A stretch of DNA of 60,000 nucleotides from Lytechinus pictus (lineage: Eukaryota), in contig NC_087251.1 of the NCBI RefSeq assembly GCF_037042905.1, forward strand, positions 44,828,001-44,888,000, given 5' to 3'. Shown piece after piece: positions 34,017-57,717 of the stretch. Position numbers and translations under genes: made by a program. How positions within the stretch are numbered: position 1 is the first letter of the stretch; every line of letters begins with the position of its first letter. Under the pieces are notes generated by a model. It saw nothing but the letters and a program-made list of their open reading frames with translations, made no database searches and had not been told where the DNA came from.

Positions 34017-35401
34017 TTAAATTTGATCTAAACGATGTGATATTTGGGATACAATGAAGGGAAGCTGGAAGAGTATTCTAAAGACGTGGGGCAGAGCTTG
34101 AAAAGGACCTGTCGCCAAAAAGTATAGTTTTTGCTTTTTTGACCGTTAAGAAATGTTGATTTGCAGAACAAAGGGACCTACTGGGAGTGCATGCCTGGAT
34201 TACTTCAGTTTCTTCACATTCTTATCTCATTCTTTTTCCTTTCTCCTTCACTCCGGGATCCCTCCCTTTTTCAGTAAATGAAGAAAAAAAAAACATTGGA
34301 GTGGTCACACTCTACCAACTGTAGCATCAGCCCTGGACATGCATATGCTTTCAGAATAAATAATTTGGCGTTTTCCTCGTCACGAAATGTATCTCTCTTT
34401 AAAGTTTGTGCACAGATTTGCCCTTGCATCATCATTTACATGCAGGAAGCGATATACATTGCGAATCTAAAGAGGATTCTGCAAGAAACGTAGCCATACA
34501 AAACTTAATACAGCAAAATATGTTTTCATTTTTTCGTATTTCCTCCTTTGTGCCAGTTCAAGACTTTGGTATTCATGAATAGAATAAATCTGCCCAAAGA
34601 AGTACGCCTCTTATATACAAGTTTTGTGTAAGTTAATATTTTGCACATGATAAAGGAAAGTCAAGGTGTTAATGAATTAAGCTTATACAAGGAATAAAAA
34701 CAATACATATACAGGCTGTTTCTTCAGTAGGCCTATTTGTATAAAAACGTATATCAGCTAAAATATAAAAATCATGTTTAGTTGTAATTTCCATTTATTC
34801 AAATACCATGCATCCTTGTGATTAGCAATGATAATAGGACCATAAGAATAATATTTTATGCTTTCTGTTATACAGTGTTTTCCTGATATATAAGTTACTA
34901 TGGTTACTGAATTATGTGGCATAATGAGCCAAAATTTGTGAGGGGGCTGGATATGGCGTATTGCATAATATTTATTAAAAATTGTGAGCGAGCGAAGCAA
35001 GCGAGTATAAATTTCGACGTTTTTATTGCAAAACTCCAAATATGTGATAGATTTTGGCATAATACTCAGAAAATAATATTATATTTTACCCTTCTCTCTT
35101 GCCTTTTCTGAATCACGACCTTCGTAACTTACATTACCCATTTACAATTTTATTGTTTTTGCTCATTGATGATCTGTATTGCTTTATTTCTGATATACAT
35201 GTTGAAAATGGAAAAGAAATAAAACAACCAGATAACTTGGCAAACCAACGAAACAAACAATAGAAAATAAAAATAGACCCATGGAACATATGATTTGCAG
35301 TAGTATAATAAGTTTGATCTGTATGTGGTCGATTTTGTTGGACGCTGTGACTGGGAAAGAACCTTCACAAGAGATCTTCAGAAACGATTTGACCCAGTTT
35401 T

Positions 35402-38400
35402 CTAGTAGGATCCAGGGATAGAACGTCCAGCTTTGAATGCCTTAGCTGCTGTCGTAACTCGCTTCAATCGTCTCTCCTGGTCAATCAAGCTTTTATGCTC
35501 CTCTGAAAAAAAAAAGAGAAACGAAAAACGATTGGGGGGTTACAATGGTGACACTTGATTGTTATGCTCCTTATATATCATGTTTCATGTAGATCTTTAT
35601 AAACGAATATATTCCAAAACGTTTTAACACATCTTGAACTATATTGTTTAGGAAGGTTATTATTAAGATTCTATTTCTTTATAGATTACAACGAGTGACC
35701 ATTACGAAATCAATTTTGAAAATTTCCGTCGAATAAAAGTCATTCTTTTCTTAATCTAATTTGGGATTTGTTCGGATTTCCAATCGGAAGTTAGAGAATT
35801 TAGAGGCGCCTGGCTATACATGGGAAGTCCGGGGTTCGATCCCCGGCCACGGCACCTATGCCCTTTTATCCTGCATTCAAATAAATGAAAATTATTGGTC
35901 ACTAGGTGTGCACTTGTTAATAAAAAAAAATAAAAAATAAGAGGCATAGTGAGACTTCTAATTGACTTTTTTAAAATACAGTTTTAAATGAGATTTAGTG
36001 AAATGATAATGGTTAGGAAGCAATAAAATGTTGAAATATTTTATGTGCACATCAGATAAAGGCACTAACGTACCTAAGGGGGGGCAGACTGCCCCCCCCC
36101 CCTGACGAGTCACAACTCATGCAGGGGACGTACCCCTGCCCCCCCCCCCTGACGAGTCAAAACTGACCGAGGGGACTATCCCCCCTTTGAGAAGCAAAAT
36201 TAATAATTTGTAATGTAAATATGCAAAGAAAACTGACGTGTGCCCCCTCTTTTGAACTTGGAGACCTTTTTTTTTTTTTTTTTTTTTTGCTTGTCAATTT
36301 TTTTTCTGGTACGAAATCGTTTATTTGTGGTTGAAGACCTTTTTTTTTTTTTGCTTGTCAAATTTTTTCGCGGACGAAATATCCTCCAAAAAAATTGCCC
36401 CCTTTTGGGAAATCCTGGGTACGCGGCTGGAAAAAGGTGATTGTGACGTCACGATCATGCGCACGAAGCGCGATCATCGTATAAACACTGAATGCCTTTT
36501 GCATTGATGATATGAATTTTCGATATGAAATTATTTTGAACGTGCAGCATACCATCATCGTCAAAAGGTAATTCTTATTCTTACCGTTATTATCATGGTA
36601 AAATATCAAGCAAACAATTAGTTTACTTATTAATAATACAGTTCAGCAAATGTTGCAACCAATCCATCATGCATCAGAGCAAATTTGACAATTTTGTAGT
36701 GATTGAATATTAAGACAAATAAATTTGACTGTTTATTATCATTTTGTTTGAAACCATAAACTACCGTTTTTGTTATGTCATCAATTTTTCAACCAAAAAA
36801 ATGATTACAATGAATAAGCATAAGTCGAAATTATTTGTAATCTATTATATCTAAAGTTGATACAAATAAGATAATTTTGTGATTTCGTTGATTATTATTT
36901 GTTTGAAACAAATAAACTACCGTCTTTGTTATGATATCAATTCTTTGAAAAATAATGATTGGCGTTATTCGAAATTTGTTATCTATTAGATCTAGATGTA
37001 ATATAAACATGATGAAAAATAAGATAATTTTGTGATTTCAACGATTTCTGAACATTTCAAAGCCTCATTTGACCAAGTTTTTCCATAGCAAGTTGCCCAG
37101 CAGCTTGACAACTTAAACTGCGGAGATGGCTAATAGAACGCCATGTCCGGTGATTTTAAAGCCATTGACACCAGTTGCCACGGTAACAAGAGATAGCATC
37201 ATCAACCGCCGTATACAGAGATTCAAACCAGATGTAAGTCAAAATGATATGTAAAGAATCTATTCAATAATGATATGTATTTGTCTATAGATTTAGAGTT
37301 TTGGTCTAACAATAATTTGTGTTTATTATTTTATTTATTTATTCTTAATGAAATCTTTAGTAGTATCATTGTTAATGATGTATTCATCCTCTTCCTTATC
37401 ATAATCATCATCGTTTTCATCATCATCATTTATTTATTTATTGGTTTTCTTTATTTTATACTGCACGGTAGGCATGCAAAACTGCCTTTCAAAGGCGCCC
37501 TGCAGTTTAACAAATAACTCTACATCAATAGCAATTCAATGTATGTAACAAAAAAATAAAGTAAAAACAGAATACACTACATATAGAGTGAAATCAACAA
37601 TTATCATGGAATCATTACATCTACATCAAGTGTACGTATGACAGTCAGAATTTTAATGATTTACAGTGTTTTTTTAATGCATGGAGGGACGTGCATTTTA
37701 GTATATCACAAGGGAGCGAATTAAATAAGACGGCAGCAACATAATTATTCAGAAGATTTTCTTTATCCGTCCTTGGGCAGTGTATTTGAAGGGGACATTG
37801 TTCGGAATATCGTTTTTATAAGTTACATTACGTTTGCAGATAAGTGGTCCCAGACAGACTGGGGCTAAATCGTTTTGTATTTTGAAAGCAAGAACACAAA
37901 ATTGATATTTGATACGTTCCTCCACTGTTTGCCATTTGAGTGTAGACAACAATTCATATGGGGAGTAAGATAGTCTTTATTCAAAATTATTCGGGCATAC
38001 TCATTCTGTAGTTTTTTAAAACTTACTTTTGTTGGTTTTTGCACAGCTTCCCCAAGATGTACACCAATAATCAATGTAAGGTCAAATCATGGCAAAATAT
38101 AAATTCTGAAGAATCCTAGGCGGAAGGAATTGTTTCATTCTCTTTATACAATCTATCGTACGAGATATTTTAACAATGATACTAGATACATCATCATACA
38201 TCATACCGGTACATCATACATCATCATCATCACCATCATCATCAGTCATCATTATCATCACATCATCATTGTCATTATCCTCCTCATCATCATTACTCTC
38301 ATCATCATCATTATCCTCATAATCATTACCATCAACATCCTCCTCCTCCTCCTTGTCGTCATCATCATCATCATCATCAGTATAATGTTATCAACGAAAT

Positions 38401-41400
38401 ATTGCACATTTGTTTAAAACAACATACGTTATTCAATTTTCATTACCATGATTACAGGATGTGAATGCTTTGATTGAGCTCTTATTAAACACCCTTGGTC
38501 TCCCAAGCAACGCCACCCCGGCTGATATAGTTTGTAGGCTACAGCTGAAGATAACTGATAGTGATCCAAAGTTCAACGATATCAAGGTACAATGTAAATG
38601 ATAAATAGTCGATTTTTTTTTCTATTCACTTTTAGGTTTTTTTTAAAGTAAGATATTCATTTTTATACTCCATAAAACCAATTCGAATCAGTTGAGAAAA
38701 TGCTGAAAAACATATTTTGAAAAGTATTTCTTCTGGCGTACAATTTCTATCTTACGGGGAGGGGGTGATCAGGGCCCCGTCTTACAAAGAGTTGTGATTG
38801 ATCAATCAATCACACAACTATGGACGGCCAGCAACGTCAACATCTTAAATGCATGTTTATTCATGTTATTTTCTAGATATGATATATATTCATAAATTTA
38901 TCACAGTTTTCTTGACAATTATGTCACTCTCTTGTTCACAAAGTATATTATGCAAATTTTCTGAAGAAAAAAATTATGACATTGATGGATTTCCATATAG
39001 ATGAGATTGATTGGATCAATCGTAACTGTTTGTAAGACGGAGCCCTGTTGTATCACCCCCCCCCCCCCCCACCATCTACTTAAAAAATAGATTGATTCAG
39101 TAACGCAAAATATTGCGTATAAGAAGATGCATTCAGATGATGAAAGCCCTCAACTATTATGGGTCTTGCCCTTTACATACAATATTGGACACTTTCTCTT
39201 TTTCCAGTGTGAATGGGCCATTGTCATCGTTGAAATTCTGCAAATATAACCGCCTTTCTTGATGAATATTCACAAATTCCTTCTTTTTTTTCTAACAGAA
39301 TCTCGCGACAGACTTGGGTATTGGAAGCGCTGGAAATATAGATGATGATGACTCAATAACCTGCCAACTCAGACGAAAGTTTGTTGAAATAAAAACCAAT
39401 TACCTCTTACAAAAGAAGGATTTAAAAAACATGCGGAGAAAAGTCCTACGACAAAACACGACGATTAAGGTACGTGATCATACAACCCAATGGTCTACTC
39501 GCTTCACCATAAACGATAATCCGAGGGGCAAAGCCACTCAGAAAATCGTCAGATCAACCTCACCTTTCTCAAACTCAAAACCAAGTATATTTGTATACTC
39601 TTTCCGACTCTATCTACCAAGGGACAGACGTAGCACAGCCCACCCCCCCCCCCCCCCCTTCTCCATGTTCAAAGTTGGCTCCCCCATTTTGAAAGTGAGA
39701 TTTTTGACTGAGTACTATTTTTTAATTTTAATGATTTTTGGTTGGATAATATACATTTTGGAAAGGTTAACATTTTTTTTATTTGCAAATTGATCTAATA
39801 CATGTGCCCCTCCCCTTATGTTATGAAATCCCGGATCCACCCCTGCTGCATATCTGTCTATTTACTATCTACATGTATATTCTGTACGTTTTATCTTTCT
39901 CATAAATAGTCATTGCGTATGAAAGTGGAGGAGGCAGATAAATCTATTCCAAAAATGGAGGAGGAACTAATGCTATCGAAAGAAAGAGAGACTTCGTTAA
40001 TTTCAGATCTAAAGGTACTTTTTCGTATTATTTAACCTTCTGTACCTGTTCGTAAATGTCAATGCCTGTAGATCTGATTTTGAAAAGTGTAAGTTTCTGA
40101 TTAACAAAATTGAGAATTACATGAAAACGGTAAGTTCAGTGTTACATTCATTATATAATTTCATCAGAATTGGAGATAAAATAATATATTTTTTCTCGTG
40201 TTATCCAGATCTAAAATTAACTGAATTAATGAATATCAGAGTAAAACTCCGTTCAAGTGAATAATTTGAGATTTTTCTTAATTATCACAGATAGTGGAAA
40301 AACAAGTTTTAGAAAAGAGTAAAAACATCCACAAAATAGAGACACAGTATCTCGGGGCGATCAAATCAGCTGGCGACTTGAAATCGCAACTAGAAGTAAG
40401 CCGAGTTATTGTTTTATTGGTATATCAGTGTATCGAGATCATTGCTTAATTGATGACGAAAAATATTGGAAAAGAAAAGTAGAATAAAATGATAAAAGAA
40501 ATTAGGAGGTGCCGTAGCTGAGTGATATGACATCCAGAACTCCTCTGAAATATTATCTTATGCCCTTTTTGCAGATGATTCAAATGTACTATACTCTCAT
40601 CCTAACCCCGATATTTTAATAAATGTACTGAACACTGAACTGGATAAATTGGTACAATGGATTAGGGCTAACAAATTGTCAATTAATGTACAAAAAACGA
40701 AATGCATGCTTTTTAGCAATTCTTTAGAACAATTGCCATCTAATATCAAATTGGACAATAAAGACATTGAAGTTGTTACTACAACAAAATTTTTAGGTCT
40801 CATAATAGACAACAAATTATCTTGGAAAACACACATTGACTTTATATGTCGTACAATTTCACGCAATATTGGTGTTATTAACAAAGTCAAATTTTTTCTT
40901 CCAACTTTCTCCCTAAAAATGCTTTACTCAACATTAATTTACCATATTTAAATTATGGAGCAATTGTTTGGGGAAATACACACTCAACCTACCTTGATAG
41001 AATATTACTTTTACAAAAGAAGGCATTGCGTGTTATTTTCAACTTGTCCTGGAGATCTCACACAGATGAGTTGTTTTTTAACAACAACATTCTAAAAATA
41101 AAAACACTGTACCAATATAACTTAGGTCAATTCATGTATCAGTTAAACAATAATATGTTACCATTCATATTTAATTCTTCATTTAACAAAAACAAAACTC
41201 TTCACAAATATCCCACACGTCAATCAGATGAATTCCATTTACCACTACCCCGGACCATCCTTGCAAAATCTATTTTTACTTTTGAAGGCCCTAGACTCTG
41301 GGGAACTATTAATAAAAACATCAAAGAATCACCAAGCCTTAATTCTTTCAAATATAAGTTCAAAACATTTCTCCAAGATAACCATTGAATTTAACTCTTC

Positions 41401-44400
41401 ATCACTCAAACTCTTGTATTTTTTTTTAAAATCAAACATGATTATCATGTCACGTACGCTTTTACATCTCTTTCGTTTTCCTGTCGATCAACGAGGTCCG
41501 TCTGTGAGTGCTGGGGCTGGATTCTGGAGACCTTTAATCTCTCTTTTTCTTATTTCCTTTTCTATTTTAATTTCCCCTATTTCCTTTTAATTTAACTGGT
41601 TCATGCTCTAGTTGTTATTTTGATTTTTATATGTTATGCAACTACAAGAATATTTATTAGGAGGCTGCACTCTACAAGCTCCGCTTTTTAGCAGCCTCCT
41701 CCATTTCCAACCTGATATGTAATAATCTTGAATATAATTTTTGTACAGGAATACTTGAAATATGTTTTGTTATTTATATGTTAAAATGTACAAAATAAAC
41801 TGTAATTGTTGAAAATGGAAATAAACGAAATGAACGAAATGAAATATCAGGCGCCTGACTATGCCATGTATAGTCAAAACGAAAGTTTGGGGTTCGAACC
41901 TCGGCGACTGCATGCACCTATAGATGCCTTTAACCAAGGCATTGTATCTACACGCATTGATCTTTTACCATATTAAATTGAATAATTGAAAAACGACATA
42001 TAGGCAGGCATCATCGTATTCACGCTTTTAGAGATATGATTGCAATTGAACAGACCGACATCAGACCTAATGTCTAATGAACACAGTTTTATGATTATAT
42101 TATGCTTTTATTACAAATGATTTTGTGTACCCCGTAAAAATGATATTCAATGACAATGAAAGAATATATATATTTATTTGAATGAATGAATGAATGAAAA
42201 AATGAGTCGACTTGAGGTCAATTTGACTTGTGACGGTCTGATGACAGGAGAGAGTAATCCGACAATGATGTAATAGCTAATAATGCAAACATAAAAGTGC
42301 GTAGATGTACGAGTATAATTCAGCATCAGCATACTAGTTTAACATAAAGGGGGCGGGGGCGGTAAACACATATTGCAATTATATACATCACTTCAAGAAG
42401 TTAGTTCTTTACGTGTATGTGAAGAAGATTTGAAGTTACAATATTACTTTTTTGTGTGACAGGCTAGTCAGGACCAAAACGTGAATTCTACAAGTAGAAT
42501 TGCTGAAATGCAAGATGAAATCGCTCGTTTAAAATTGGAGAAAAAGCAGTTTGAATCACAATTAAAGGTATGTTTTAAAAAGCAACTATCATTTATATCA
42601 TCATCTTTGGTCATGATGTTAACAAAAGATAACCTTGATAACATAAGTTAAAACGGATTGAACTGAAGTAAACCAAAAACGAGAAAAAGATGTACTCAAA
42701 GGATGCATTGTCATTACCAAATTTTATTCCCCATCTCCATCAGATGAAATCAATCAAAATAATACCACCGACTGTCACTGATGGGATCTAGCGATCAAGA
42801 TAATGAGAAGGATTTCATATTTTAATACTGAAGGGTTTTTTTAGAGCATTTTTTCACATTTCCTTTACATAATGGTTAAGATAGGCTTTATTAAATGAGG
42901 CGGGGAATGAAATCAATCTCCCACCCCCACTTAAATTGGTAGAAAAAAAATCAAACCCAATGTGGAATATGTCATTTTTTCTTATCATTTTTACTTAATT
43001 TGCTCGCAGGAAATGGAATTAAAATTGTCAAAAGCAGAGAGTGATGCCGATGATGCAATAAAGGAAGAGAAGAATCAAACCGATGAAATAAAGAATGAGA
43101 TGACATTAAAAATAGAGGTAGGTCTATATAAAGTGGGGGTGCATTTGAAATTTACACTCTTTTCAAAACTTCTATCAGACTATATACAGCTCGTATATTT
43201 TCCATAGACGACGCATTGCACATTTGCATTATAACGCACCATTCAATATTATTAGTGTGCACCATCTTAACCCCATGAAATATGGCGGGTAACTGGAAGA
43301 CTGGCAGACGTGCAAATAATTATATCATGGTTCAAATTGAGGAATCTGTGCAACCTTTCGTAATTCGACTTTTGCCTCAAGTTTCTTCGTACTTTTCCAA
43401 TTCTGACTAGATTTCTAACCATCGTGAACAATAAATTTCTTGTCCATGAATCAGTTTTCAATTTATTAAATAATTATGCTAAACCCGCAATAGGCTTACC
43501 GTTACTGAAAATATATACTGTACATGTAGAGAATAAAAGGCCGTTAGAATATTGTAATATTGTTTAATCTAAAGCATTGGAGTCGGAAATCAGATGGAAT
43601 GGAGAAACTTGTCAATCAACTTGAGAAAACTCTTTCAACTCTGGAGACAGAAAAAGACGAATACCAACAAAAATTACAGGTATCAAACTATAATGATTTC
43701 AATCATTTGATATCTCCCATCCTGAAAAGCTTGTATCCTCGGATTTTGTTCTTACATTATGATCCTCTCCTGCAATGACTGTATTTCACAGGGGCCGCAG
43801 AACCTAGGGCAAGGGGGTGGGCTTCAGCCGCCCCATTTTTTTTCAATAAATGAGCACTGAAACGTGAAAATGACCATCTGATTGTGATTTTTTTTACATG
43901 GTTATAGCCCGTCCTCTTTTCCCCATACTTTCAAATCCACGACCCCCGTTTCAACTGTTCAACCTACACATTAGAACCTATTTGCGTTTAAGCGTGAAAT
44001 ATGAAATAGTATAATGGTCCTGATGGTATTTTGTCATCTTCTTTAATGTGTAATAATTTGCTTTGTTAGTATTGTTGAGAAATGAAATAATCTTGAATTT
44101 CAAAACTTGAACAGTCTATTGGGAAAGTACTGGAATATGGAGCGTGTTTAAAACGTATGCCTTTATAATAATCCGCCAATTCGCACTCAGTGTCTTCTAT
44201 TTGATTCCAAACAGATAACGTCTGAAAAACTGACTGAAAAAGCTAGGCGTCTGCAGGATTTCGAAAAGATTTATTTTGAAATGGAACAGGAAAATACAGA
44301 TCTCCGCTCCATACAAAAGGTACGGCTATACTGGTAAAATAATTATTATACACGAATTGAAAATAAAATCTGATAGTTGTGGTACATACTATGTAGTTTG

Positions 44401-44526
44401 ATCTTTTACGCTACTTTTCATAAACTTTTGATGTGAAATATTCATAAAGCATGTAGTTTCAAAATGTTATGAAATGAAACCTAATTAAAATGGCGACGAC
44501 AGCAGCTATGAAGAAGATGATAATGT

Positions 44527-44558
<32 letters not shown>

Positions 44559-47500
44559 GAAACGACGCGTCATGCAGTACCATTGTCGCGACGATGATAC
44601 CGATGCTACTGCTGATAATGATCTTGTTTATGTCGTTGATGGCGATGATGATCATTATTCATTATATTTATTACATGACCATGTCCACATCACTTGCTGG
44701 AGGCTATACTCTTATTGAGGAAACGTGATGGAGCGTTGTAGCCCAGTGGATTAGTCTCCGGACTTTGAAACAGAGGGTCGTGGGTTCGAATCCCAGCCAT
44801 GGCGTAATTTCCTTCGGCAATGAATTTATCCACATTGTGCCGCACTCGACCCAAGTAAGGTGAATGGGTACCCGGTAGCATGGGTGTCGATCAGTATTCT
44901 TGGTTGGAGGGATGATGACACAAAATTTCTTGTGGATGGGGATCTTTCAGCATTACCCCCACTAAAATCACAAGTTAGGACATTTGGGAGTGATTGATAC
45001 GCATGGTGTTCTTGGAAATTCCTTCATTGTTGTAGTGTACTGTACTTATATAATTTTTTTTAAATTCAATTTGTGTTACAAGTAAGCCTATTCTAAACTC
45101 ATACGAAATAAAAAATGACAAAAATTATCTGGAACATGTACATAGTGATCTGTTGATTGAGCATGATGTATACACAGGGGCATCGATCCATTTTTCAGAT
45201 TGGGGGGGGGCAAAATCATGAATCAACGTTCCAAAGACGCTCGATCATATAAAAAGAACAAACTCACCCACACACCCCTACACCCCCACACATAGGCCTA
45301 TATTATATATATATATATATATATATGAATCATGAGAAAGAGACACATATCTCAACCTCACCAACAATGCGAGCGCGAAGCGCGAGCTGAAAAATTTTAG
45401 TATGACATGAAAACAGGAAAAATGTACCTGTTTAGGTTTGCTTGTAGTAACTCATGAGGAGCATAGATACATGTATCTCACTAGAGAGCGAGCTAAAATT
45501 TCTTTATATTCTGACGTGAAAGCTTGATATTCTAAGCACTTTTGGTACCAATGATTAACATGGGTATCTAGAAGAACAATAGATGCGAGCGCAAAGCGTC
45601 AGCTGAAAATTTTAATATTTCGATCTGGACAAAAAGACAATTTAATGGACGCTTTTTAATAAAGAACAAGATATATATCCAACAAAAGATTATTGCAAAT
45701 CGAAGCGGGAGTTCTTTTGAGGTATAGAACTGAAAACGGGACATTCTATTCACCTATTTAATCATGAAAAGTATGGGGTTTTGGTACAGAAATGATGCGA
45801 GCGCGAAGCGCGAGCTGAAAATTTTTATATTCCGATCTGAAAAGCAGACATTTTGAGCACGATTTTAGATCAAAATCGAGTTGGTATCTTAATCTCGCTT
45901 GCTGGTTTCAGTGTAGCATTACAATCTTATTTTATTTTTAGTTGCACATGCGGAATTATTGGGAGGGGGGTATAACGATATGTTCCCCCCAAATATTTTC
46001 ATTGGTGGGGCTATTACTCTAATAGCTATATGGTCATTCCTTAGACGATTTATCTTGCCACCCTTTTACTCCCGTTTGTTTTTCCACCCTTTTGAATTAA
46101 TTGATTTATTAAAATTAATTCATTCACCACTGGTGGGATGGAACACCCTATCAACAAAAGTTGTTTTTCGTTGGGGTCCTTTTATGTCATGTGTTAAAAA
46201 ATATCATATACATAAACATTTCATTCTTTTTCATCTTGAACTTCCACCCATCTGTTTAATAGTCCTGAAAAAGAATGTTTTCATTCATATATAACATAAA
46301 TAACAATATACACAAATTGCGAGGGAAACAAACTGATTGATGGCATACTATAATCATCACTATAATCATCATGATCAAACTTTTCATTTTTTCATCATCA
46401 TTATTATAATTTTTCTACCCTAAATTATTGGGGGGGGGGGTGATAATACAGGCCATCCCCCCACTTGAAATATTGAAATATTGGGGGGGATATCCCCCCC
46501 CCCCATCCCCCCGTGATCGACACCCATGCCCGGTAGGAAGCATTCCTCGAATGCTCGAGCGCCTGATCAAGGTAGCCGTGCTAAAACCGGGTAATAATAA
46601 TAGCAGGACCCGCTGGGAGAACAGTTTTCGGAACTGAAGTGGCTATCCTGGGTAAATATGCCGTTATTATTATTATCAAACATTTACCTCTGTAACAATT
46701 GAATAATAAGAAAAGTAACGCATCATGATACCATGGCTATTCTCAATTACATTGTAAGATAATTATTATGCTTTCCGTTTCAGAAACTTGAAATAGATAA
46801 CCGGCTGACTGGAGATAAAATGGAAGAAATGAAGGGCAATATTGGAAAAACTTTAGAGAAAAATAAAGAGCTAATGATCCAGTTAGATTCAGCCCACGAG
46901 GAGTGTTTGGTACGTTTAAAATCGTTTGTTAAAAAAAGGGGGATTAGTCTTAAGGTCCCCGAGATTTCATGTTTTTCTTCATCTTTTGATATGGTAATTT
47001 CTCATCATCCGCAATAATATAATATGGATAGAAGAAATACACAATATCACCTCTAAATGCTTGAAAGGGGCACACTTGAAACATGCTTAAAAGGGATTAT
47101 AAGGCAAATTAAATTCGTTTGTGTCCGGTTTAATATATGGATTCCAAATCAATATAGCAATATTATCTCAGATGTGTGAGATGTTGAATGCCGCTTTACT
47201 TCTTACAATCAGCAGGTATCAGTAATTAATTCCTTCGTTAAAATTCATTACAAATTTTTTTATAATAATTGTGTTATCATTGAAATTAATTGACTCAAGT
47301 TTATACGTTGTAAGATGATGTTGTTCTCAACAGAACAGCGACTTACTTTCATGGCTTCTTAGCTGGCCTCTTTTTTCATTTCTATCATTTTAAGCATAAT
47401 TTTATGTTTAATTTTTCTTAATTTTAAAATGTTGAATTCTTTAGGAAATGACATGAGTTTATTGTATTTGTTTATATTGATACAACGCAATTGCTACTGA

Positions 47501-50500
47501 AAGACCGTTGCTATTATTTTTTTTGGTTCATAATTTATTTGCATTTACGTATTTTCCTATTTGTATGTTGAAAGATGGATAGAGAAATTAAATAAACTAA
47601 TGATTCAAAAATTCAATGAATGAATGAATGAATGAATGAATGAATGAATGAATGAATGAATGAATGAATGAATGAATGAATGAATCTTTATTTCGTTTCA
47701 ATTCCGATATCAAACAACAATAATAACAACAGTAAATTATTGGGATACAAGTAAATAGCAAAGAACAAAAGTAAATAATTACAGGATAATTACAGGATAA
47801 TATACATAATACATGCACTACTTTTTATGGAACATTAGTAACACCCATGAGAAGAGATGGAAATGAAACGTGGTGACCTACTAAGAAGCTTAGCTTGTGG
47901 GCCATAGGCCACCAGAATGTTAAAAACTTACATTAGCAATCATTTTAAAACATCATAGAACAAGCAAACAAAAAATTGGAGTAAATAACCAAAGTACAGA
48001 TATACATATTTACAAAAGATACACTAAAAAGTAACAAAAAGGTGAAATGCAGAATGCAAGCATTCTATTAGACCTAAAGTATAAGAATCTGAAATTCGAA
48101 AAGAAGAAAGAAAAGAGGAAAAAATAAAGAAAATAGGCAGAGCTCTATTTTTGCATAGATAATTGTGGAAAGAATACAATTTATAAAGTTAGACGAGATA
48201 TAACAAGCAGGCATTTGTTTACTGATCTAAGTATTTCTTCAGTAAATCGGTCTTTAACTTGTTTCTAAAAACACTAAGGCTAACTGATTGCTTCAATGAA
48301 GAAGGAAGGGAGTTCCATAATTTTGGCCCTGTATAAACAAATGTATTTAGCCGAAAACTAGTTTTGACCAATGGCAAGTGGAGAAAAGAAACTTGTCTTG
48401 TATAGTAAGAATGGATTTGGTCATTTCTAACACATAATGAATCAAGGGCAAGTGGAAGTTCTCTTTTATTTAATCGAAGGAAAATTAAGTTATATATCCT
48501 TTCTGGTATTATAGGAAATGGAAAGAGAGGTCAAAACGAAAAATGAAGAACAGACCTCACTCCAGAAACATTGTCTTGATATTACACACGAGAATGAAAG
48601 ACTGTCAAATAAACTGAAGGTATGTTTTATTCACGATCATATTTCGCTTTTAGTTTGCATTTGGTTTCATTGTTCATGTTACTTTTTTGTACTTTGATGT
48701 GCGGATGCCCTTGTATAGAGACTATATAGTAAAAAGCGTGGGGGAATATCTGTAAAGTGACACAAATCCTATAAATCATACAAATTGACCGATAAACCTG
48801 TATGAACTTTATTAGTTTGAAAATTGACAAGGCTATTTATTTTGACTTCCAAGCTAATAGGGTTGGTCTATACACGAATATTGATATTTATGTATAGATA
48901 AATTGTTAATATTGAACACTTAAACAGATATTAAACGGATACTAATTTCCAATTTATTATATGCCCTTCCACTACTTTTCTGGCTGTTGTGTGAACACCA
49001 AAGTTAATTCTGATTACACTATTTTGTTGATTAGCCTTTACTAGATGTTTTCTAGTTCCCACTGCATTTTCTTTTTATTTCTTCTATTATCCGAACTTCC
49101 GAAGATTTCGTCTGATAAGCTGATTGAAACATCAAAAAGTGTACAAGAGTTTGAAAGGAAGTGTTTTGAATTGGAGCAGAAAAATGTGAAACTCTGCTCT
49201 AAACAAAAGGTAAGAATTCAGGAAAATACTAAGCTTGATTTTGTTTTCAAGAAAAATATTGCTAATCATAGTTGGACACAAAGAGAAGAGTCTTTATTCT
49301 GTACGATATTAGGGAGATTTCCCATCACTGGGACGCAGCACGCTTTCAAGAACATAGAAAATGTATTATCAAATACCCTCGATGACAAAGATGAACCAAG
49401 AAGTCTTTGTCGAAAATTGGTGAATCAATAACAGGGGCCCGTTTCATAAAGAGTTACAACTGTTGTAACTTTGCCATTATAGCAACTACCATGGCAACAG
49501 GGCTCAGCAGCCAATCAAAATCAAGGTTGCTATGGTAGTTGCCATAATGGCAAAGTTACAACAGTTGCAACTCTTTATGAAACGGCTCCCAGAAGTTTCG
49601 TCTGGGACACTAGACAAAGGACGTGTTTGCAATTTTTCGTCAGCTCTTTATTAGGACCAAACCGCTGTTCCCTGCAGTTTACCAATTCGACAAAGACCCC
49701 AGCTGTTCACTGTGATTTGAATTTGTTCTGCGTCACGGTGCAAAAAAAAAATCCCTAATATTATATGAGGCCACCAGCAATCTCAAGCTTCACCACTTAT
49801 AATGGCGGTCTCCTGCATTCATTAAATAATTTTCTTTAAAGAAAGGTTTATACTTTACATCGTTTATTCCATATTTATTAAGATTACAAAGGCCTAATAA
49901 GGTACATGAATCATGATATATGCAAACATAATATATGCATGTATTATACAACTAATTCAATGCAGAAATATAAGTAAGCAAATAAAGAGAAAAACAATAT
50001 TTTGAAAATTAAGTTTCATAAACGTTTTCCATATCACCATGCAGTCTTGGTGTTCATATCGTCACGATGATTTTTCATCTGACAGAAGTTTGTATATATA
50101 CAGCACCCACGTGATAAAGGCTCCATTAAAACAAATAATAATAACAGTTTGATGAAAGCTTTGTACTTTTCTTTTTTCATTTCTTATTCGTGAACAGTTT
50201 GGGGTTCAATGGCTCCGAAGACCCCCCCCCCCTCCCCATCTGTGTGCGATACATTTGGATTACCTGTAGGCTAACTAATACATTTTAATTTTGAATGTGA
50301 ATATCTCGTTTTTCAACTGTTTGAAATGATCTATTATTGTCTAGACTTTCCATCAGATGATGATAGCAGCTGGTATGTCCACTGGATTGATCACGTCAGA
50401 CGAACAAGAGATAGATATTGGAATGATAATTCAATCGTACCAAGAGTTAAAGGAACGGTGTTCGAAACTTGAATCACAGGTCGAGGATGGGATGATTTCG

Positions 50501-53190
50501 AGTATTATATCTCCATCGGTAAGTTCAATGGTATTATGCAGTTTTCCTTTAATTCTCGGCAGATTATCTTGTATTTCGTTAATTCTCGGTAGATTATCTT
50601 GTATTTCGTTAATTCTCGGCAGATTATCTTGTATTTCGTTAATTCTCGGTAGATTATCTTGTATTTCGTTAATACTATATAACTCTTCAACTTACATATA
50701 TTTGTCTATGTATCCAGCGCTTAGAAACAATGTGTATTAAGCCCTTTATAAAATGTATGCTATTATTATTAGTTCGCACAATTTAAGACCATAACTGGCA
50801 AATGGAGCTATACGGTCATGTTAATCAATACTTTCAAATTGTCTAGTTTTCTTCTTCGACAAAAGACAAGCATTTTATTTCCCCAATTATTTCCCCCATG
50901 CTTCATTCACTATCAAAATAATGTATAAAATCGTGATATCGTATCTTAACCTAAAATCTAGTTTTCCCATGAGACAGATACTTGAAAAACTTTATTCTGA
51001 ATGTGATAACATCTCGAAAACAATCATGTTTATAGTTGCTGGCTGGGGTGAGCAATATTTTCTTAGCGGCAGTATATATATTTCTTGGCTGTAGTAAACA
51101 GTGCACTAGTGGTGATAACATTTTTGTTTTTTAATATGTTTCTGTAATTACTATAATTTTGTAATCGTTGTTTTTATTCATATTTTATTCTCTTTTGAAC
51201 ATCATCATAGGATGGACAGTGCGGCTCTGAATTAGAAGCACTCAAATTCAAGATAAGTTGCCAAGATATTATGATCACCAAACTCCGGTACAGTTTATCA
51301 ACGTAAGTTCATCTCAAGGAAAATTAGAGTTGTCCGCATGATACAACCATAGTTCAGTGCCCCTGGATTTTTAAATCTCTCTTCAATAGGAGAGGGTCCT
51401 TTCAGCCCCCTCAAAAAATGGCGCGCGCAGCGCCTGGATAACGGATTATCTTTACTTTACAATTATATTGTCTAGTTGCAATAACGATTAATAAAAAAAA
51501 TGTGAAAGGAACGTTTCATATACAGTCATAGTTCATTTAAACTTTCTTGTTAGACAACGTGGAATATGCAAAATGATTTTTTATTATTATATATTTTTTC
51601 CATGAGTCTTTTGATTTCATCTGTCAATAATTTGGGAAAATCTTGTCAAGCATGCATTGTAGCCTTAAAATGATGATGATGATGATGATGATAACAATAA
51701 TAATAATAATACATTAACTATAATAATAATAAAGAGAAGAATAATTAAGCTTTTTTAACTTCTTTGTAAATTTGTTCTCTCGAAGGTTTCAACAGAGTGC
51801 ATTGTCAAACAAAGGATCTTTAGAAACAAGTGATGTTCCAACAGTAGACAGAGCTGTCTTGTCGTTGATACCTCCGGAAGAAATCCCAACCGTGATGGAA
51901 TCACAACTAGAACAATGGGACAAAGACGACACCAAGGCAATTGGCAAAGGTGCATTCGGAGTGGTCTTTCTGAAAAGACTGGAAAGCGATCCAGTGGCCG
52001 TCAAGGTTCAAGGTATACACAAAGGCAAGAAAGTCAACGAAGATGACGCCAAGAGAGCGATGTCCTTGAACCACGCCAGGACTATGAAGGAAGTGGCGGT
52101 ACTGCGTCTCCTTGGGGAACACCAAGCATTCCCAAGATGTCATGGGTACACCAAGTATACCAGTTTTCCAGGACTCGTCCTCGAGTTCCTGGGTGACAAA
52201 GATACAAGAGATGTGTATTCGCTAAGCAAGGCAATCAAGACCAAGAATCCTACATTGTCGGATCAAGAATGGTTGAGCATCGTTGTTGATATCACCGAAG
52301 GCATCCACGCCATGCATGAGAGAGACCTCCTTCACAACGACATAAAACCGAACAATATCCTTCTCCACAGAAATGACAGATGGAAGGCTTACATCATTGA
52401 CATGGGTAATGTCACCACGGTGACCATGGCACATAAGAATCGTAACCTGACCAATCACGAGATGGAAGGATACAGATTGGGGGTGGTCTATCAGCATCTC
52501 GCGCCTGAATATATCTTAGATGGAGAGTTCAGCAGCATTCAATCGGATATATTCTCTCTAGGGAGGATTATTCACTATATCTCTCGCGTCATCCATAATA
52601 CGGATCTATTTCATGTTGCTACATTGATGATCAACAGCTACCCTCATCTCAGACCTTCATGGAAAGACATTATTCGTGTCATCCAGAACACCAAGAATCA
52701 GCGGGCATGTCAATAGCATGTAACTATGGATTCTCCTGTATGAACTTATGAAATGTTCTTACTCGTTGATGTCGCAGTCACACCAACGAAACCGACTCAA
52801 GACCGATCAAATCCGTCATTTTATTTCCTATGGATCGATATTATCTATCAAAACTGATTTCGTCGGTGTGTGACTACGGCATGCATTTCGATTAAATAAC
52901 AAAGTCTGGCCTTACGATTGTGGCAGTCATGGGAAGTTTGTACGTTTGACATGTATTTACGACATAAGCGTGAAAAGGGAAAGTATTGTAATTGGGCTTA
53001 CTTGCAAAGACTACCATGTAGACTCCCCACGTGATGCTCCATATCCAGCCAATCAGGAGGAAGGTTACGGTGAAAAGCTGTGACACGCCCACGAAGATAT
53101 TCGTACAACACAGACCTATTTCATCATCTTGTTTGTTGTTCTGTTGCCGGGTTCCACAACATAGCATACTAATACCTGCCAGTATCGTAC
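35402..53190 (-). CDS. STUM: Protein stum homolog / Spec3-domain membrane protein, last two coding exons; no upstream exon recognised in the window
   Basis: Exon 53190-53002 (cag|...|gtaag, phase 1/1) encodes GTILAGISMLCCG...LCCTNIFVGVSQLFTVTFLLIGWIWSITWGVYMVVFA, the Spec3/stum signature Q..T...L.GW.WSI.WG. It joins in phase to exon 35502-35402 (t-rich cag acceptor) encoding KEHKSLIDQERRLKRVTTAAKAFKAGRSIPGSY*. The family call is strong; the long-range join is inferred. Confidence 0.8.
37126..52716 (+). CDS. Uncharacterised coiled-coil plus atypical protein kinase, ~857 aa, 15 exons, nested antisense in the stum intron
   Basis: Exons: 37126-37233, 38458-38586, 39299-39469, 39910-40014, 40291-40395, 42463-42567, 43010-43117, 43575-43679, 44215-44319, 46784-46909, 48515-48619, 49105-49209, 50345(or 50357)-50518, 51211-51302 and 51786-52716. 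All have AG/GT boundaries and splice into one open frame (phase 0 until the last, phase-2 intron). E/K/Q/L-rich heptad sequence is followed by a kinase domain. Confidence 0.75.
37174..37187. promoter_or_regulatory. Candidate RFX X-box in exon 1 of the nested kinase gene
   Basis: GTTGCCACGGTAAC differs by one base from the canonical GTTGCCATGGTAAC and lies 48 bp downstream of the putative ATG. Confidence 0.35.
37480..38100 (-). mobile_element. Degraded CR1/L2-type LINE 3' fragment
   Basis: Broken minus-strand frames (…WG…KKLQNEYARIIL…MLSTLKWQTVEERIKYQFCVLAFKIQNDLAP…) are typical of the non-LTR ORF2 C-terminus. Confidence 0.65.
38190..38380. repeat. Degenerate (ATC)n microsatellite
   Basis: Long run of catcatcat/cctcat triplets. 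Confidence 0.85.
40535..41824 (+). mobile_element. 5'-truncated CR1/L2-clade LINE (RT C-terminus, 3' UTR, tandem tail)
   Basis: Encodes LFADDSNV...LVQWIRANKLSINVQKTKCMLF...KFLGLIIDNKLSWKTHI..., then a frameshift near 40945, then ...GPRLW...FKYK. Ends aataaacgaaatgaacgaaatgaaat. Confidence 0.9.
44730..46676 (+). mobile_element. tRNA-derived SINE split by a hAT-like insertion
   Basis: Head ggagcgttgtagcccagtggattagtctccggactttgaaacagagggtcgtgggttcgaatccc runs to 44878; the element resumes at 46529 and ends in a (tat)n tail. Confidence 0.8.
44879..46528. mobile_element. Non-autonomous hAT-like DNA transposon
   Basis: Perfect 15-bp TIR catgggtgtcgatca/tgatcgacacccatg, with 8-bp TSD cccggtag at 44871-44878 and 46529-46536. 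Confidence 0.88.
47614..48476 (-). mobile_element. CR1/L2-type LINE 3' fragment with (TTCA)n tail
   Basis: The minus strand encodes an ORF2 end (...YTGPKLWNSLPSSLKQS..L..FRNKLK..L). It is followed by 3' UTR and aaataaagattcattcattc...; the (TGAA)n run spans ~47614-47685. Confidence 0.75.
49432..49592. mobile_element. Palindromic MITE carrying X-box-like and CCAAT motifs
   Basis: caggggcccgtttcataaagagttacaactg ... cagttgcaactctttatgaaacggctccc. A related copy lies at ~23276-23430. Confidence 0.75.
50548..50672. repeat. 30-bp tandem repeat, ~4 copies
   Basis: ttaattctcggYagattatcttgtatttcg repeated with alternating C/T. Confidence 0.9.
51786..52716 (+). CDS. Intronless protein kinase domain exon (terminal exon of the nested gene)
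   Basis: Motifs GKGAFGVV (Gly loop), VAVK, KEVAVL (helix C Glu), LHNDIKPNN (catalytic loop), IIDMG (DFG equivalent), HLAPE, SDIFSLG and RPS. Confidence 0.92.
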
Positions 53191-56100
53191 CTGTATGTAT
53201 GCAATCAAAATTAAAGAAACGCAATGATAAGACATCCCGTTTGATGTGGTGTTGTTTGATCTGTTTTGCCTTCATCAAATTTAGACTGCTCAAAATTGCA
53301 TTGAAATACATAATGAAATCTGATTTTTTTTTCCGGTAAACATATTTTGTGAAGCCACTAAATCTTGCTTTGTAATTACAATCAAACACAATTTTCAAAA
53401 GTCTATCAGACATGCAGAAAACCCCTCCCCCCTCATTAAATAAATGAATGAATGAATGAATAAATAGATGAATAAATAAATACATACATACACACAAATA
53501 AATAGACAAATTAATTAATTAATCAATAAATAAATAAAAGTAAGAAAATAAATAGAATTAAAAAGAAATGAAATATCACGACAAATAATTATGTTAGGGT
53601 AAGTAATTTTTAAATGAAAGCATGCTATTTCGCATGCATTTCAAAAGATTCATGTAATTTTTTTCCGGTAAAAATATTTTATGAAGCCACTAAATCTTTC
53701 TTTGTAATAACAATCATTATAAATTACGTGATCCTTTTTTAGGGGCGGCAGCAAGTTCATTCCAAGATTGGATTGCATCACTTTTCATATTCACCGCGAA
53801 TAAACATCATTGCTGAAGCATTTGTGCTTCATTAAGTGGATTGATATACATGCATGCATACAATTCGACAAGAGGATTCTGTTAAATATGCTCACAGCTT
53901 TTTTCATTATTAAAGTCGCATCTCGGCATCAATCTAACCAATGCTGGGCAAATAGATTCCACGGTATCCCCGCAAGGTGTTTGGTATCTCCATGCCAACC
54001 AGACTGATCACGTGATTCTGCAGTCCAATTTGATTATTCATGAGGGTTTGCTATCTGTACTTTATCAGAAATATTGTGAACACTGACTGGAATGGGAATA
54101 TTCCTACGTTACAAAATAAAAATGATTAACAACCGTAATTTTTTTTCCAAGGGCGATCATGGCATTGGACCGATCGAGACAGGGGAGGGGCGATCGTCCC
54201 TATATTGTTTTTAAGAGGTATGGGAGACCCCCCCCCCCCCCAAATAAAAAAAATAAAATAAAAAAAAGAAAAGAAAAGAAAAGAAAAGAAAAAGTATTTT
54301 AGAAAAAGACTATCAAAAAGAGAAGGTTTAGGTCATGTAACTTAATTTTTGATACCAGTAAAATCAAATAATCATTGAAAGAAAAATGACGTCGCCTTCA
54401 GTTTTTCCCCTATCAATAAACTACGGCGTCGCCCTATCCGCTATTTGATTTCACATGTTTATTTCCTTTGCAATGGTGAAGATGAAGATCCAATATGATG
54501 TTTGATACTCGTGTCCTTGGTATCAGGGACGATGTGCAGGGTATTCAAAAGGGATCAAGATTGCCCTTTTTGTGATTTATTTGCGTCATAAATATAAAAA
54601 AAAAACACAGAAAAATGGTAGCCTGACCAAGCCCCCTATATACAGGTATACATTCTCACTTCTCTTTTTATGTCCTTAGTTTTTAATCACTTATATACAG
54701 GTGTTTGGCCCTACCTCCCCCCCCCCCCCCCCCGTATAAATGTATCTGCTCTAAATTCTCCAAACATGCTTAGTGCTCAAAAGAATATAGGCATGGCAGG
54801 GGCCACGGAACGGTTTTCAAAGTTGGGGGCTGAGCCAAAAGTGGGGGGGGGGGGCAGACCATGCAAAAATCACAATCATATTAATAAATGGTCGTTTTTA
54901 CGTTTTTGTATAGGTTTTTGGAAAAGTAGGGGCTGAAGCCCCCCCCCCCCCCCCCCCGCTTCCGCAGCCCCTGTATAGAACTTTAAAAATGTACAAAGTT
55001 AAATACAAATAAGAAATTAACAAGTGCGGCGGGGTACAAGTCCTGCTTTCCCTTTTTTCGATGGAAAGCTATGGTTGTTGGGCAACAAGATGAGTGGAAA
55101 GTGCAATGAAACGAAAATAACGGAATATTATTAGAACATGATTATAATATGCATCGTTTGTTTCAATTTAGTTTGAAAGATGTCAGAATTTACAAATAAG
55201 CGATTAATATAATTTAAAAAACCTTGATCTCTGACATTTTAATTGATACCTCGGGCAACGCAAATTGTTTGAATCCGTGGGTAATTCATTTTTGATAACG
55301 TTATGACGGCCTCGTATCGAATTAATCGATGCATTCTCGCATGCATCAGATGATGCATGTTATTAAGGCGAGTTCTGCCAACTGTTCAAACACGAACAAA
55401 GTGCAAGCGAAATTATATGTAGTGCTATCGCTATGTAGATTTTTAATGTCCTGTGTAAGTTTGAAGTTTGCCATAAAACTGTCATTTTAATTTGTGACAT
55501 TATTGGTATAATACCGGTGTAATAATAATTCTTTTTTTGTGCCTTGTTTTGATGAAAATGGAAAATGGCGAACCAAACCTATATCAAATATGAAAAGGAG
55601 GTCGTAGAGCAGCAGGTAAAATGAACACTAGCAAAACCGACTATCCCAAAATATAATAAAATACAAATAAATAAATACTTGAATAAATGAAGACATTGAT
55701 ATATAAATGAAAAAATGAGTAAATGAATAAATAAAAAGATACATTAATAAATAGATTTAAAAATAATCAAAGCAAGCATTTTCATAAAAAATAGATTCTA
55801 AATCCATCATACTATGCGCCTTGAGCATTACGAGATGGTACCTTAGAAATTGTATTTATTTATTTATTCATTTATTATTATTGTTGTTGCTTTTGTTATC
55901 ATTATGGCCAAGCTGAAATTTGATTATTCTCTGTTGTATTCTGAAAGTAATTTATCATAGCCATTGATGATGTGGTATTGTTGCTTTTGTTTTTTGTTTT
56001 TTTACTCTCCAGCAAACTACCTCTGCCCCTTGGACATAGCATAATGGCGTGAATCCCGGGGATGGGGGATATATGCCCCCACTTTAGGAGAGGGGAGGTG

Positions 56101-56787
56101 GCTTGTACAATCATCATTGATCAAATCAGTGCCGTTAATGAAACACTCATCTTTACAAATTTATCAATTTATAGGGGACTTTAAATCATATTAATTGATA
56201 CAATAATGTTATTTTGCTAAAAATTTTGAATGTTGTATCATCTCAATATAATTCTTAAAGATTATTCAAAATCTTTCCTTATGCTTCATTGTCCTATTTC
56301 CACGTTTTTTAAGTTTATATTGTGGCCTGTGAGGGCCTATGATCATTTCATATGACACCAAATAAGCACCTTTTTTCCGATAATCATGATCCATTTTTTT
56401 GTTATTCCCATAAACCAGTGATCATATGATCAAACATTAAATGTTTGAATAAAACTCATTTGAAAAATTTTCTCGACTGTAATGAGTTTGTAAATAAAGA
56501 GGCTTTAATAGTACGAAATTATAATTTGTAAACAAATTTTCGTCATTACTCCTATGTTCAGTCGCTATGTTAAGTCGCTGCCTATGAGGCGCCGAATGTA
56601 CCAATATTATATAGAACAATTATTTGTTATATAATCATTATTTATTAAATAATAACTATTATTTATATATAATTTACATTTTATTTGTAAATAACTACTA
56701 TTATATAAAATATCATTTCTAATTATTTATATATAATTCCAAGTAATACTTCATTATTTGTAAATAATAATAGTTCGACATTCCATT

Positions 56788-57131
56788 ATAATGATTATTT
56801 GTTTTTCATTATTTATAAATAATGATTATTTGTTTTTCATTATTTACAAATAATGATTATTTGTTTTTCATTATTTATAAATAATGATTATTTGTTTTTC
56901 ATTATTTACAAATAATGATTATTTGTTTTTCATTATTTATAAATAATGATTATTTGTTTTTCATTATTTATAAATAATGATTATTTGTTTTTCATTATTT
57001 ACAAATAATGATTATTTGTTTTTCATTATTTATAAATAATGATTATTTGTTTTTCATTATTTATAAATAATGATTATTTGTTTTTCATTATTTATAAATA
57101 ATGATTATTTGTTTTTCATTATTTATAAATA
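56788..57131. repeat. 31-bp AT-rich tandem repeat, ~11 copies, with degenerate copies on both sides (~56620-57480)
   Basis: Unit ataatgattatttgtttttcattatttaYaa. Confidence 0.92.
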
Positions 57132-57717
57132 ATTTGTTGAGTTTTCCATTATTTATAAATAATGATTATTTGTTAAATAATGAAAACGTCTACTTCATTA
57201 TTTATAAATAATTTTTTCGAGTGCACCATTATTCTCATTATTTATAAATAATCATTATTTAATGTTCGAGTTTTCCATTATTTATAAATAAAGATTATTT
57301 GTTAAATAATGAAATATCTACTTCATTATTTATAAATAATAATTTTGTTTCAATATCCCATTATTTATAAATAATCATTATTTATAAACAATTTTTACAG
57401 TTTGCCATTATATACAAATAATCATTATTTATATACAAATAACCATTATTTATTAAATAATGCCATTATTTATTAAATAATGGAAAACTCGCTATAACAT
57501 GCAAATGTGGGACCGCCCATGATATGAATATTCATGATGCGATTTCCTTTTTCGTGATTTTTCTTCACAAATTTTTGTCCATTTCCTCTTCATAATGACA
57601 TTTCTTGAAGCAATTTTCTAGGGATATGGTCTGATTGTAATATTCTTCATTTTCTATATAACTTCGTCTTCGTAGAAATATCAAAAAGTGTAATTTTATT
57701 CGATTTTTCCTCCAGTT

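Follow-up and report, generated by a model that had tools for sequence, protein, structure and literature searches.

The locus described here lies in a 60,000-nucleotide stretch of the genome of the sea urchin Lytechinus pictus (the window, G000:C7:44828001-44888000), and coordinates below are in window numbering unless a genome position is given. The interval 35402-53190 contains the last two coding exons of a minus-strand gene for a Spec3/stum-family membrane protein, referred to here as the host, together with a plus-strand gene for a predicted protein kinase, referred to as the guest. The entire coding region of the guest is located antisense within the single last intron of the host. It is very probable that the pair is correctly read as a Spec3-like host gene whose last intron houses an independent plus-strand kinase gene of 13 coding exons. 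Each of the two genes is represented by a spliced contig, the host by X6 record 22 and the guest by X1 record 4. These are Logan contigs of four sequencing runs (X1, X2, X3 and X6) that were compared with positions 34800-54700; all four runs are presumed to be RNA, a guess in that none is on record as RNA, and the contigs are without strand information. Where a run left part of the region uncovered, as X6 does at 51400-52727, the gap was not taken as evidence about expression.

Structure and identity of the host gene

The host is a gene of three coding exons on the minus strand encoding a membrane protein of the Spec3/stum family. Its features are as follows.

G000:C7:44890506-44891168, minus strand: host coding exon 1, found 2.5 kb past the right end of the window by a search of the L. 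pictus genome
53002..53190, minus strand: host coding exon 2, both borders in phase 1, with codons for the latter half of the Spec3 domain; covered by X6 record 22 and X2 record 13
35503..53001, minus strand: host last intron, 17,499 bases, gt..ag; X6 record 22 joins 53002 to 35502
35402..35502, minus strand: host terminal coding exon, 33 codons (the split one counted) and stop TAG at 35404-35402
34844..35401, minus strand: host 3' untranslated region (UTR), at least 558 bases; X6 record 22 extends to 34844

The donor of exon 1 is at the window-equivalent position 62511. Exon 2 is preceded by an ag acceptor and ends in GCA A followed by gtaagc, a phase-1 donor, and this reading of the sequence agrees with the initial annotation, which had placed the end of a stum exon at 53002 in the same phase. 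The 62 whole codons of exon 2 alone matched Pfam PF15795 with an E value of 3.1e-19 (69.7 bits versus a cutoff of 27) over profile positions 26-84 of 85, while the full read-through protein of L. pictus described below and the orthologue from L. variegatus matched with 106.3 bits over positions 1-84 of 85. Two transmembrane helices are a general feature of Spec3/stum-family domains, and hydrophobic stretches are apparent by eye in the host protein sequence. The acceptor preceding 35502 has a long, strong polypyrimidine tract (tttttcag), and the frame entered in phase 1 (A+AG) is open to the TAG. Joining exons 1, 2 and 3 by script yielded a host product of 315 residues. The architecture of this product is like that of S. 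purpuratus LOC100891868 ('Protein SPEC3' in UniRef) and L. variegatus LOC121418333, in which the Spec3 domain is C-terminal and followed by a basic tail; the L. pictus RefSeq host models differ from these Spec3/stum relatives in the tail, which is a product of read-through.

Two repeat-bearing regions were observed in the first intron of the host. Positions 56650-57480 are occupied by AT-rich tandem repeats with a unit like 'aaataatgaaaaacaaataatcattatttat'. Positions 57700-60000 contain large inverted or duplicated blocks, the sequence at about 57720-57960 recurring at about 59830-60000 with repeated units bearing runs of G or C between them, and are likely a transposable element with terminal repeats.

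Splicing of the host to the distal terminal exon

X6 record 22 (1825 nucleotides, depth 34.3) aligned from its positions 766-956 with 53192-53002 without a differing letter, and from positions 957-1615 with 35502-34844 with 10 differing letters, joining 53002 directly to 35502. The first 765 letters of the contig match nothing in 34800-54700, as expected if they derive from exon 1, which is outside the stretch compared. Since the 17.5 kb are skipped exactly at GT..AG borders, the contig looks like complementary DNA. The junction from 53002 to 35502 predicted by the initial annotation is therefore present in this contig, unstranded and from a run presumed to be RNA. The alignment ends at 34844 with 210 letters of the contig left, even though the stretch compared reached 34800; a polymorphic indel, an intron in the 3' UTR or a repeat could account for the halt.

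The host C-terminus was also evaluated by comparison with related proteins. A search with the exon 2 protein retrieved L. pictus LOC129265691 (100% identical), S. purpuratus LOC100891868 (92%) and a Diadema setosum protein (87%). The L. variegatus protein XP_041468081.1 shares a protein cluster with the L. pictus host and has a tail that is the translation of the distal exon bar one residue. Identical residues between the joined 315-residue product and its orthologues number 310 of 314 for XP_041468081.1, 259 of 316 for the S. purpuratus protein and 195 of 310 for the Diadema protein. In all three orthologues a homologous tail follows directly after ...VVFA and aligns with the exon at 35502-35402. 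A tblastn search with residues 290-316 of the S. purpuratus protein showed 85% identity to this exon, the tblastn search of the S. purpuratus protein within the window found the exon with an E value of 2.8e-8, and the exon was the sole listed match to S. purpuratus residues 282-316 in the genome of L. pictus itself. The distal exon is accordingly judged to be the conserved form of the host C-terminus. The phase-1 terminal exon of the initial annotation is thereby upheld by its acceptor, its open frame to the TAG, the contig join and the homologous tails, and alignment of the joined protein with the orthologues gave the same answer.

Exon structure of the guest kinase gene

The guest model was built by mapping the 765-residue L. 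pictus RefSeq protein XP_054757992.1 onto the window. The coding exons are as follows, with joints listed for X1 record 4 given as contig-alignment positions.

37126..37233, plus strand: kinase coding exon 1, 108 nucleotides, ATG at 37126, AG before and GT after; RefSeq-guided splice model
38458..38586, plus strand: kinase coding exon 2; RefSeq-guided splice model
40291..40395, plus strand: kinase coding exon 3, 105 nucleotides, phase 0; RefSeq-guided splice model
42463..42567, plus strand: kinase coding exon 4, 105 nucleotides; RefSeq-guided splice model
43010..43117, plus strand: kinase coding exon 5, 108 nucleotides; start of the L. variegatus isoform X1 model
43575..43679, plus strand: kinase coding exon 6, 105 nucleotides; not in the L. 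variegatus isoform X1 protein
44215..44319, plus strand: kinase coding exon 7, 105 nucleotides; X1 record 4
46784..46909, plus strand: kinase coding exon 8, 126 nucleotides; joint 44317->46782 (cut +2), X1 record 4
48515..48619, plus strand: kinase coding exon 9, 105 nucleotides; joint 46908->48514 (cut +1)
49105..49209, plus strand: kinase coding exon 10, 105 nucleotides; joint 48615->49101 (cut +4)
50345..50518, plus strand: kinase coding exon 11, 174 nucleotides; the arithmetic of X1 record 4 fits, joint 50517->51210 listed
51211..51302, plus strand: kinase coding exon 12, 92 nucleotides; joints 50517->51210 and 51302->51786
51786..52716, plus strand: kinase terminal coding exon 13, containing the whole kinase domain, stop TAG at 52714-52716; covered as far as 52761 by X1 record 4 and X3 record 20

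The 13 coding exons span 37126-52716 with AG and GT at every border, and together form an open frame of 2298 nucleotides encoding 765 residues, 737 of which are identical to XP_054757992.1 in a gapless alignment. X1 record 4 (1727 nucleotides, depth 138.4) runs through exons 7-13 in colinear order. Of the six joints in this contig, five were reported with GT..AG ends, and the remaining one (49209->50345) is implied by the positions of the record. The initial annotation had counted 15 exons, a number replaced here by the 13 coding exons accounted for; the AG that precedes the ATG exon makes additional non-coding exons at the 5' end possible. Exon 6 is probably a cassette exon on the basis of its absence from isoform X1 of L. 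variegatus, and X1 record 4 begins at the border of exons 6 and 7. Exons 3, 4, 6, 7, 9 and 10 are each 105 nucleotides, exons 1 and 5 are 108 and exon 8 is 126, all in phase 0. The proteins encoded by exons 7 and 10 are 47-50% identical, a likeness that points to internal duplication of exons.

Repetitive sequence was encountered within the introns of the guest. In kinase intron 3, positions 40526-41388 (plus strand) contain a reverse-transcriptase fragment, a likely retroelement remnant (Pfam RVT_1, E 3e-6; its 27.5 bits fall short of the 29.6-bit cutoff), on which many high-depth contigs from all four runs aligned with many differences, as for a dispersed retroelement. At 38770-39010, 44730-45420 and 49460-49630 the summed contig depth was very high, about 95,000 at its peak; all four runs showed many loose ends and odd joints there, and these stretches are probably copies of abundant dispersed repeats.

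The guest protein

The guest protein is laid out as a short N-terminal part, a coiled-coil-like stretch encoded largely by phase-0 exons of 35-36 codons, and a C-terminal kinase domain encoded in one large terminal exon. The middle part, rich in E, K, L and Q, looks by eye like a coiled coil. The plus-strand open reading frame at 51745-52716 matched Pfam PF00069 with an E value of 1.4e-22 (80.8 bits versus a cutoff of 31.7). The catalytic motifs of protein kinases comprise the glycine loop, the VAxK lysine, the HxD...N catalytic loop, DFG and APE. In the guest these were recognized by eye as GKGAFG, VAVK, HNDIKPNN (HND for HRD), DMG (for DFG) and APE, a set compatible with predicted kinase activity.

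The kinase exon is 96% identical to the L. variegatus 'dual serine/threonine and tyrosine protein kinase-like isoform X1' (XP_041468078.1, 577 residues). XP_054757992.1, which RefSeq names 'putative leucine-rich repeat-containing protein DDB_G0290503', is in the same 90% cluster as XP_041468078.1, and from their sequences the two proteins are assigned to the same gene as the guest or to its orthologue. The name 'DSTYK-like' is automatic and comes from RefSeq alone. A sequence search of the PDB at E <= 1e-10 returned no match to the guest kinase, and at E <= 0.001 the matches were generic, weak and to mixed kinases, the best (PERK and FERONIA) having an E value of 7e-7. With no solved structure closer than this, the guest is at most a putative member of the DSTYK subfamily proper.

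Geometry of the nested pair

The guest coding span of 15,591 bases occupies 89% of the 17,499-base host intron, in agreement with the initial annotation of an intron of about 17.5 kb that holds a plus-strand gene of 15.6 kb. From the host acceptor to the guest ATG there are 1,623 bases, and from the guest stop (TAG, 52714-52716) to the host donor there are 285, the same close spacing of kinase stop and stum exon reported initially. Contigs of X1 and X3 carry the guest 3' UTR as far as 52761 or beyond, with a further joint at 52792. The guest would end within about 100-240 bases of the host splice donor. The ATTAAA noted earlier at 52891 is present, as a consensus match only. Matches to AWTAAA number 350 in the window versus about 317 expected, and since the motif is this common in an AT-rich window the ATTAAA match means little. 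Candidate signals in the interval between the guest stop and host exon 2 are as follows.

52891..52896, plus strand: ATTAAA, candidate poly(A) signal for the guest; consensus match only
52820..52825, minus strand: AATAAA, located 177 bases into the intron, candidate signal of a short host isoform made by read-through; consensus match only

Host and guest would presumably function as two independent transcription units on opposite strands, with splicing of the host pre-mRNA removing the 17.5-kb intron and, with it, an antisense copy of the guest.

Read-through of the host donor and alternative readings

Several observations weigh against the nested arrangement as described. Both L. pictus RefSeq host proteins found (XP_054759631.1 and XP_063957590.1) read through the donor at 53002; the read-through protein is 318 residues long, with 37 residues past the donor and a stop at 52894-52892, and the models consequently do not show nesting. 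Among the contigs, X3 record 21 (202 nucleotides, depth 2.9) is unspliced across the donor at 52969-53169, and X2 record 13 (1658 nucleotides) stops exactly at 53002. For the guest, coding exons 1-6 are placed by the RefSeq protein and splice-site consensus, no contig being listed there, and the description 'wholly inside the intron' holds for the coding sequence and for the 3' UTR to 52761-52792. The RefSeq models, the low-depth unspliced contig and the contig stopping at the donor suggest that a read-through form of the host may coexist with the spliced form.

The initial annotation had considered that host transcripts ending in another terminal exon between 52716 and 53001 would speak against the distal exon. 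The RefSeq models of L. pictus do end in such an exon, by read-through at 52892-53001, but the conserved tail and the spliced contig still favor the distal exon. A rival reading is that the main L. pictus host transcript reads through after exon 2, in which case the kinase gene would be chiefly a tail-to-tail downstream neighbor and the distal exon a minor or occasional splice. This is unlikely. Although the 318-residue protein appears in two RefSeq releases, X3 record 21 and X2 record 13 behave as it requires at the donor, and the minus-strand AATAAA is suitably placed, the contig spliced through the junction has a depth of 34.3 and the distal exon is used in the L. variegatus RefSeq model. 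Moreover, three other echinoid proteins (L. variegatus, S. purpuratus, Diadema) have conserved the distal tail, none of their tails aligns with the read-through one, and the donor is retained in all four Spec3 paralogues described below.

About equally unlikely, and if anything slightly more so, is that the two genes interfere, as the initial annotation had raised. By this account convergent transcription of the guest, or its 3' end or the processing thereof near the host donor, forces the host into read-through and premature polyadenylation, and kinase expression thereby switches the Spec3-like protein between the conserved basic tail and a lineage-specific read-through tail of 37 residues. 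Such interference is conceivable in view of the host read-through model and the minus-strand AATAAA at 52825-52820; the read-through model and the spliced form both exist, and the guest 3' UTR extends to at least 52761-52792. However, nothing measured ties the expression of host and guest, the read-through tail is without a counterpart in the orthologue proteins, and the RefSeq read-through may reflect reads of unspliced pre-mRNA. If the account were true, it would represent an isoform switch driven by a nested gene in a protein of a cilia/mechanosensation family. For transcriptional interference between host and guest, the pair offers a possible small natural test case, in an embryo model whose two genes can both be perturbed.

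That the 53002->35502 join is a chimera of contig assembly and 35502-35402 an exon of another gene or of none, a suspicion that arises because one listed contig from one run carries the join and De Bruijn contigs can be chimeric, is very improbable given that the join falls exactly at gt..ag borders in the correct phase, that the resulting tail stands at the same point in the L. variegatus, S. purpuratus and Diadema proteins, and that the exon is both detected by tblastn (E 2.8e-8) and the sole match to residues 282-316 in the genome of L. pictus.

With the spliced, nested arrangement preferred, the L. pictus public host protein models found stop within the intron and thus lack the conserved terminal exon and give no sign of the nesting. 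Including the distal exon gives back the C-terminus common to L. variegatus, S. purpuratus and Diadema, and the main value of the result is for annotation.

Origin of the pair

Other Spec3-domain exons in the L. pictus genome form a cluster of four at C7:13.90-13.95 Mb, 31-42% identical to the S. purpuratus query. A phase-1 GT donor is present at the homologous codon in all four of these paralogue exons (C7:13.9 Mb). The donor phase common to the four indicates that the host intron is an old feature of the family that predates the guest.

A search of the same genome with the kinase exon gave 48 matches, to which C5 contributes four (44-46% identity) and C3 one (38%) that are paralogous kinase exons. 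All five start between query residues 262 and 270, no more than about 8 residues from the terminal-exon boundary. By sequence, the guest is thus assigned to a dispersed kinase family with a shared exon structure. The initial annotation had entertained birth of the guest inside the intron. This is unlikely since at least five kinase-exon paralogues on other chromosomes share the exon start, and the intron is older than the gene pair. Plausibly, a kinase of the dispersed family was duplicated or relocated into the pre-existing intron and became the guest. At E <= 1, the coiled-coil region of the guest had no match in the 10-kb stretches upstream of three of the kinase paralogues.

When the entire kinase protein served as query in a word-based search for homologues, only Lytechinus proteins and two weak matches came back. 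In an exhaustive search the best relatives outside Lytechinus were an unnamed ENA protein (56%) and a Diadema setosum protein (46%); this search clusters at 50% identity, which can hide orthologues. Adjacency of RefSeq accession numbers proved unsuitable as a stand-in for synteny, because at this locus itself the L. pictus accessions of the two genes are 1639 apart.

Elsewhere on the same chromosome, G000:C7:28966769-29009103 contains at least 11 near-identical tandem copies, at a spacing of about 4 kb, of a distantly related kinase exon with 32-33% identity.

Relation to known nested genes

The arrangement is ordinary gene nesting, of which animals have many examples, and no sign of a new mechanism was seen. 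According to excerpts of PMC3786989, intronic genes make up about 6% of Drosophila genes, and 2mit is nested in intron 11 of Drosophila timeless2; an excerpt of PMC3933685 describes LRRTM genes nested in introns of alpha-catenin genes. As far as these excerpts describe them, both cases resemble the present one in that a complete intron-bearing coding gene is located on the opposite strand inside one host intron. Relative to the same excerpts, the present pair differs in having a Spec3-like host and a coiled-coil kinase guest, in being from an echinoid and in the guest coding span filling 89% of the intron. Literature searches on Lytechinus nested genes, stum/Spec3 introns and sea urchin Spec3 returned nothing on this pair; the last of these led no further than a citation of the 1987 Spec3 paper by Eldon et al. 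Host and guest genes are both already in RefSeq; what is new is this gene pair and the finding that the L. pictus host models found are without the conserved terminal exon.

Other features of the window

To the left of the Spec3-like gene, an open frame at 17079-17429 (plus strand) carries the N-terminal signature of proteasome alpha subunits (PF10584, E 8.7e-13) and the start of the Proteasome domain (PF00227, E 3.1e-10), and is identified from these sequence matches as an exon of a proteasome alpha-subunit gene. ARAGORN predicted a threonine transfer RNA (tRNA-Thr) with anticodon CGT at 25783-25854 (minus strand), which is either a real tRNA gene or a copy resembling a short interspersed element. 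A long tandem repeat at 23914-24628, with a unit of about 11 codons present about 17 times and open in two frames on opposite strands, is probably a minisatellite and not a gene.

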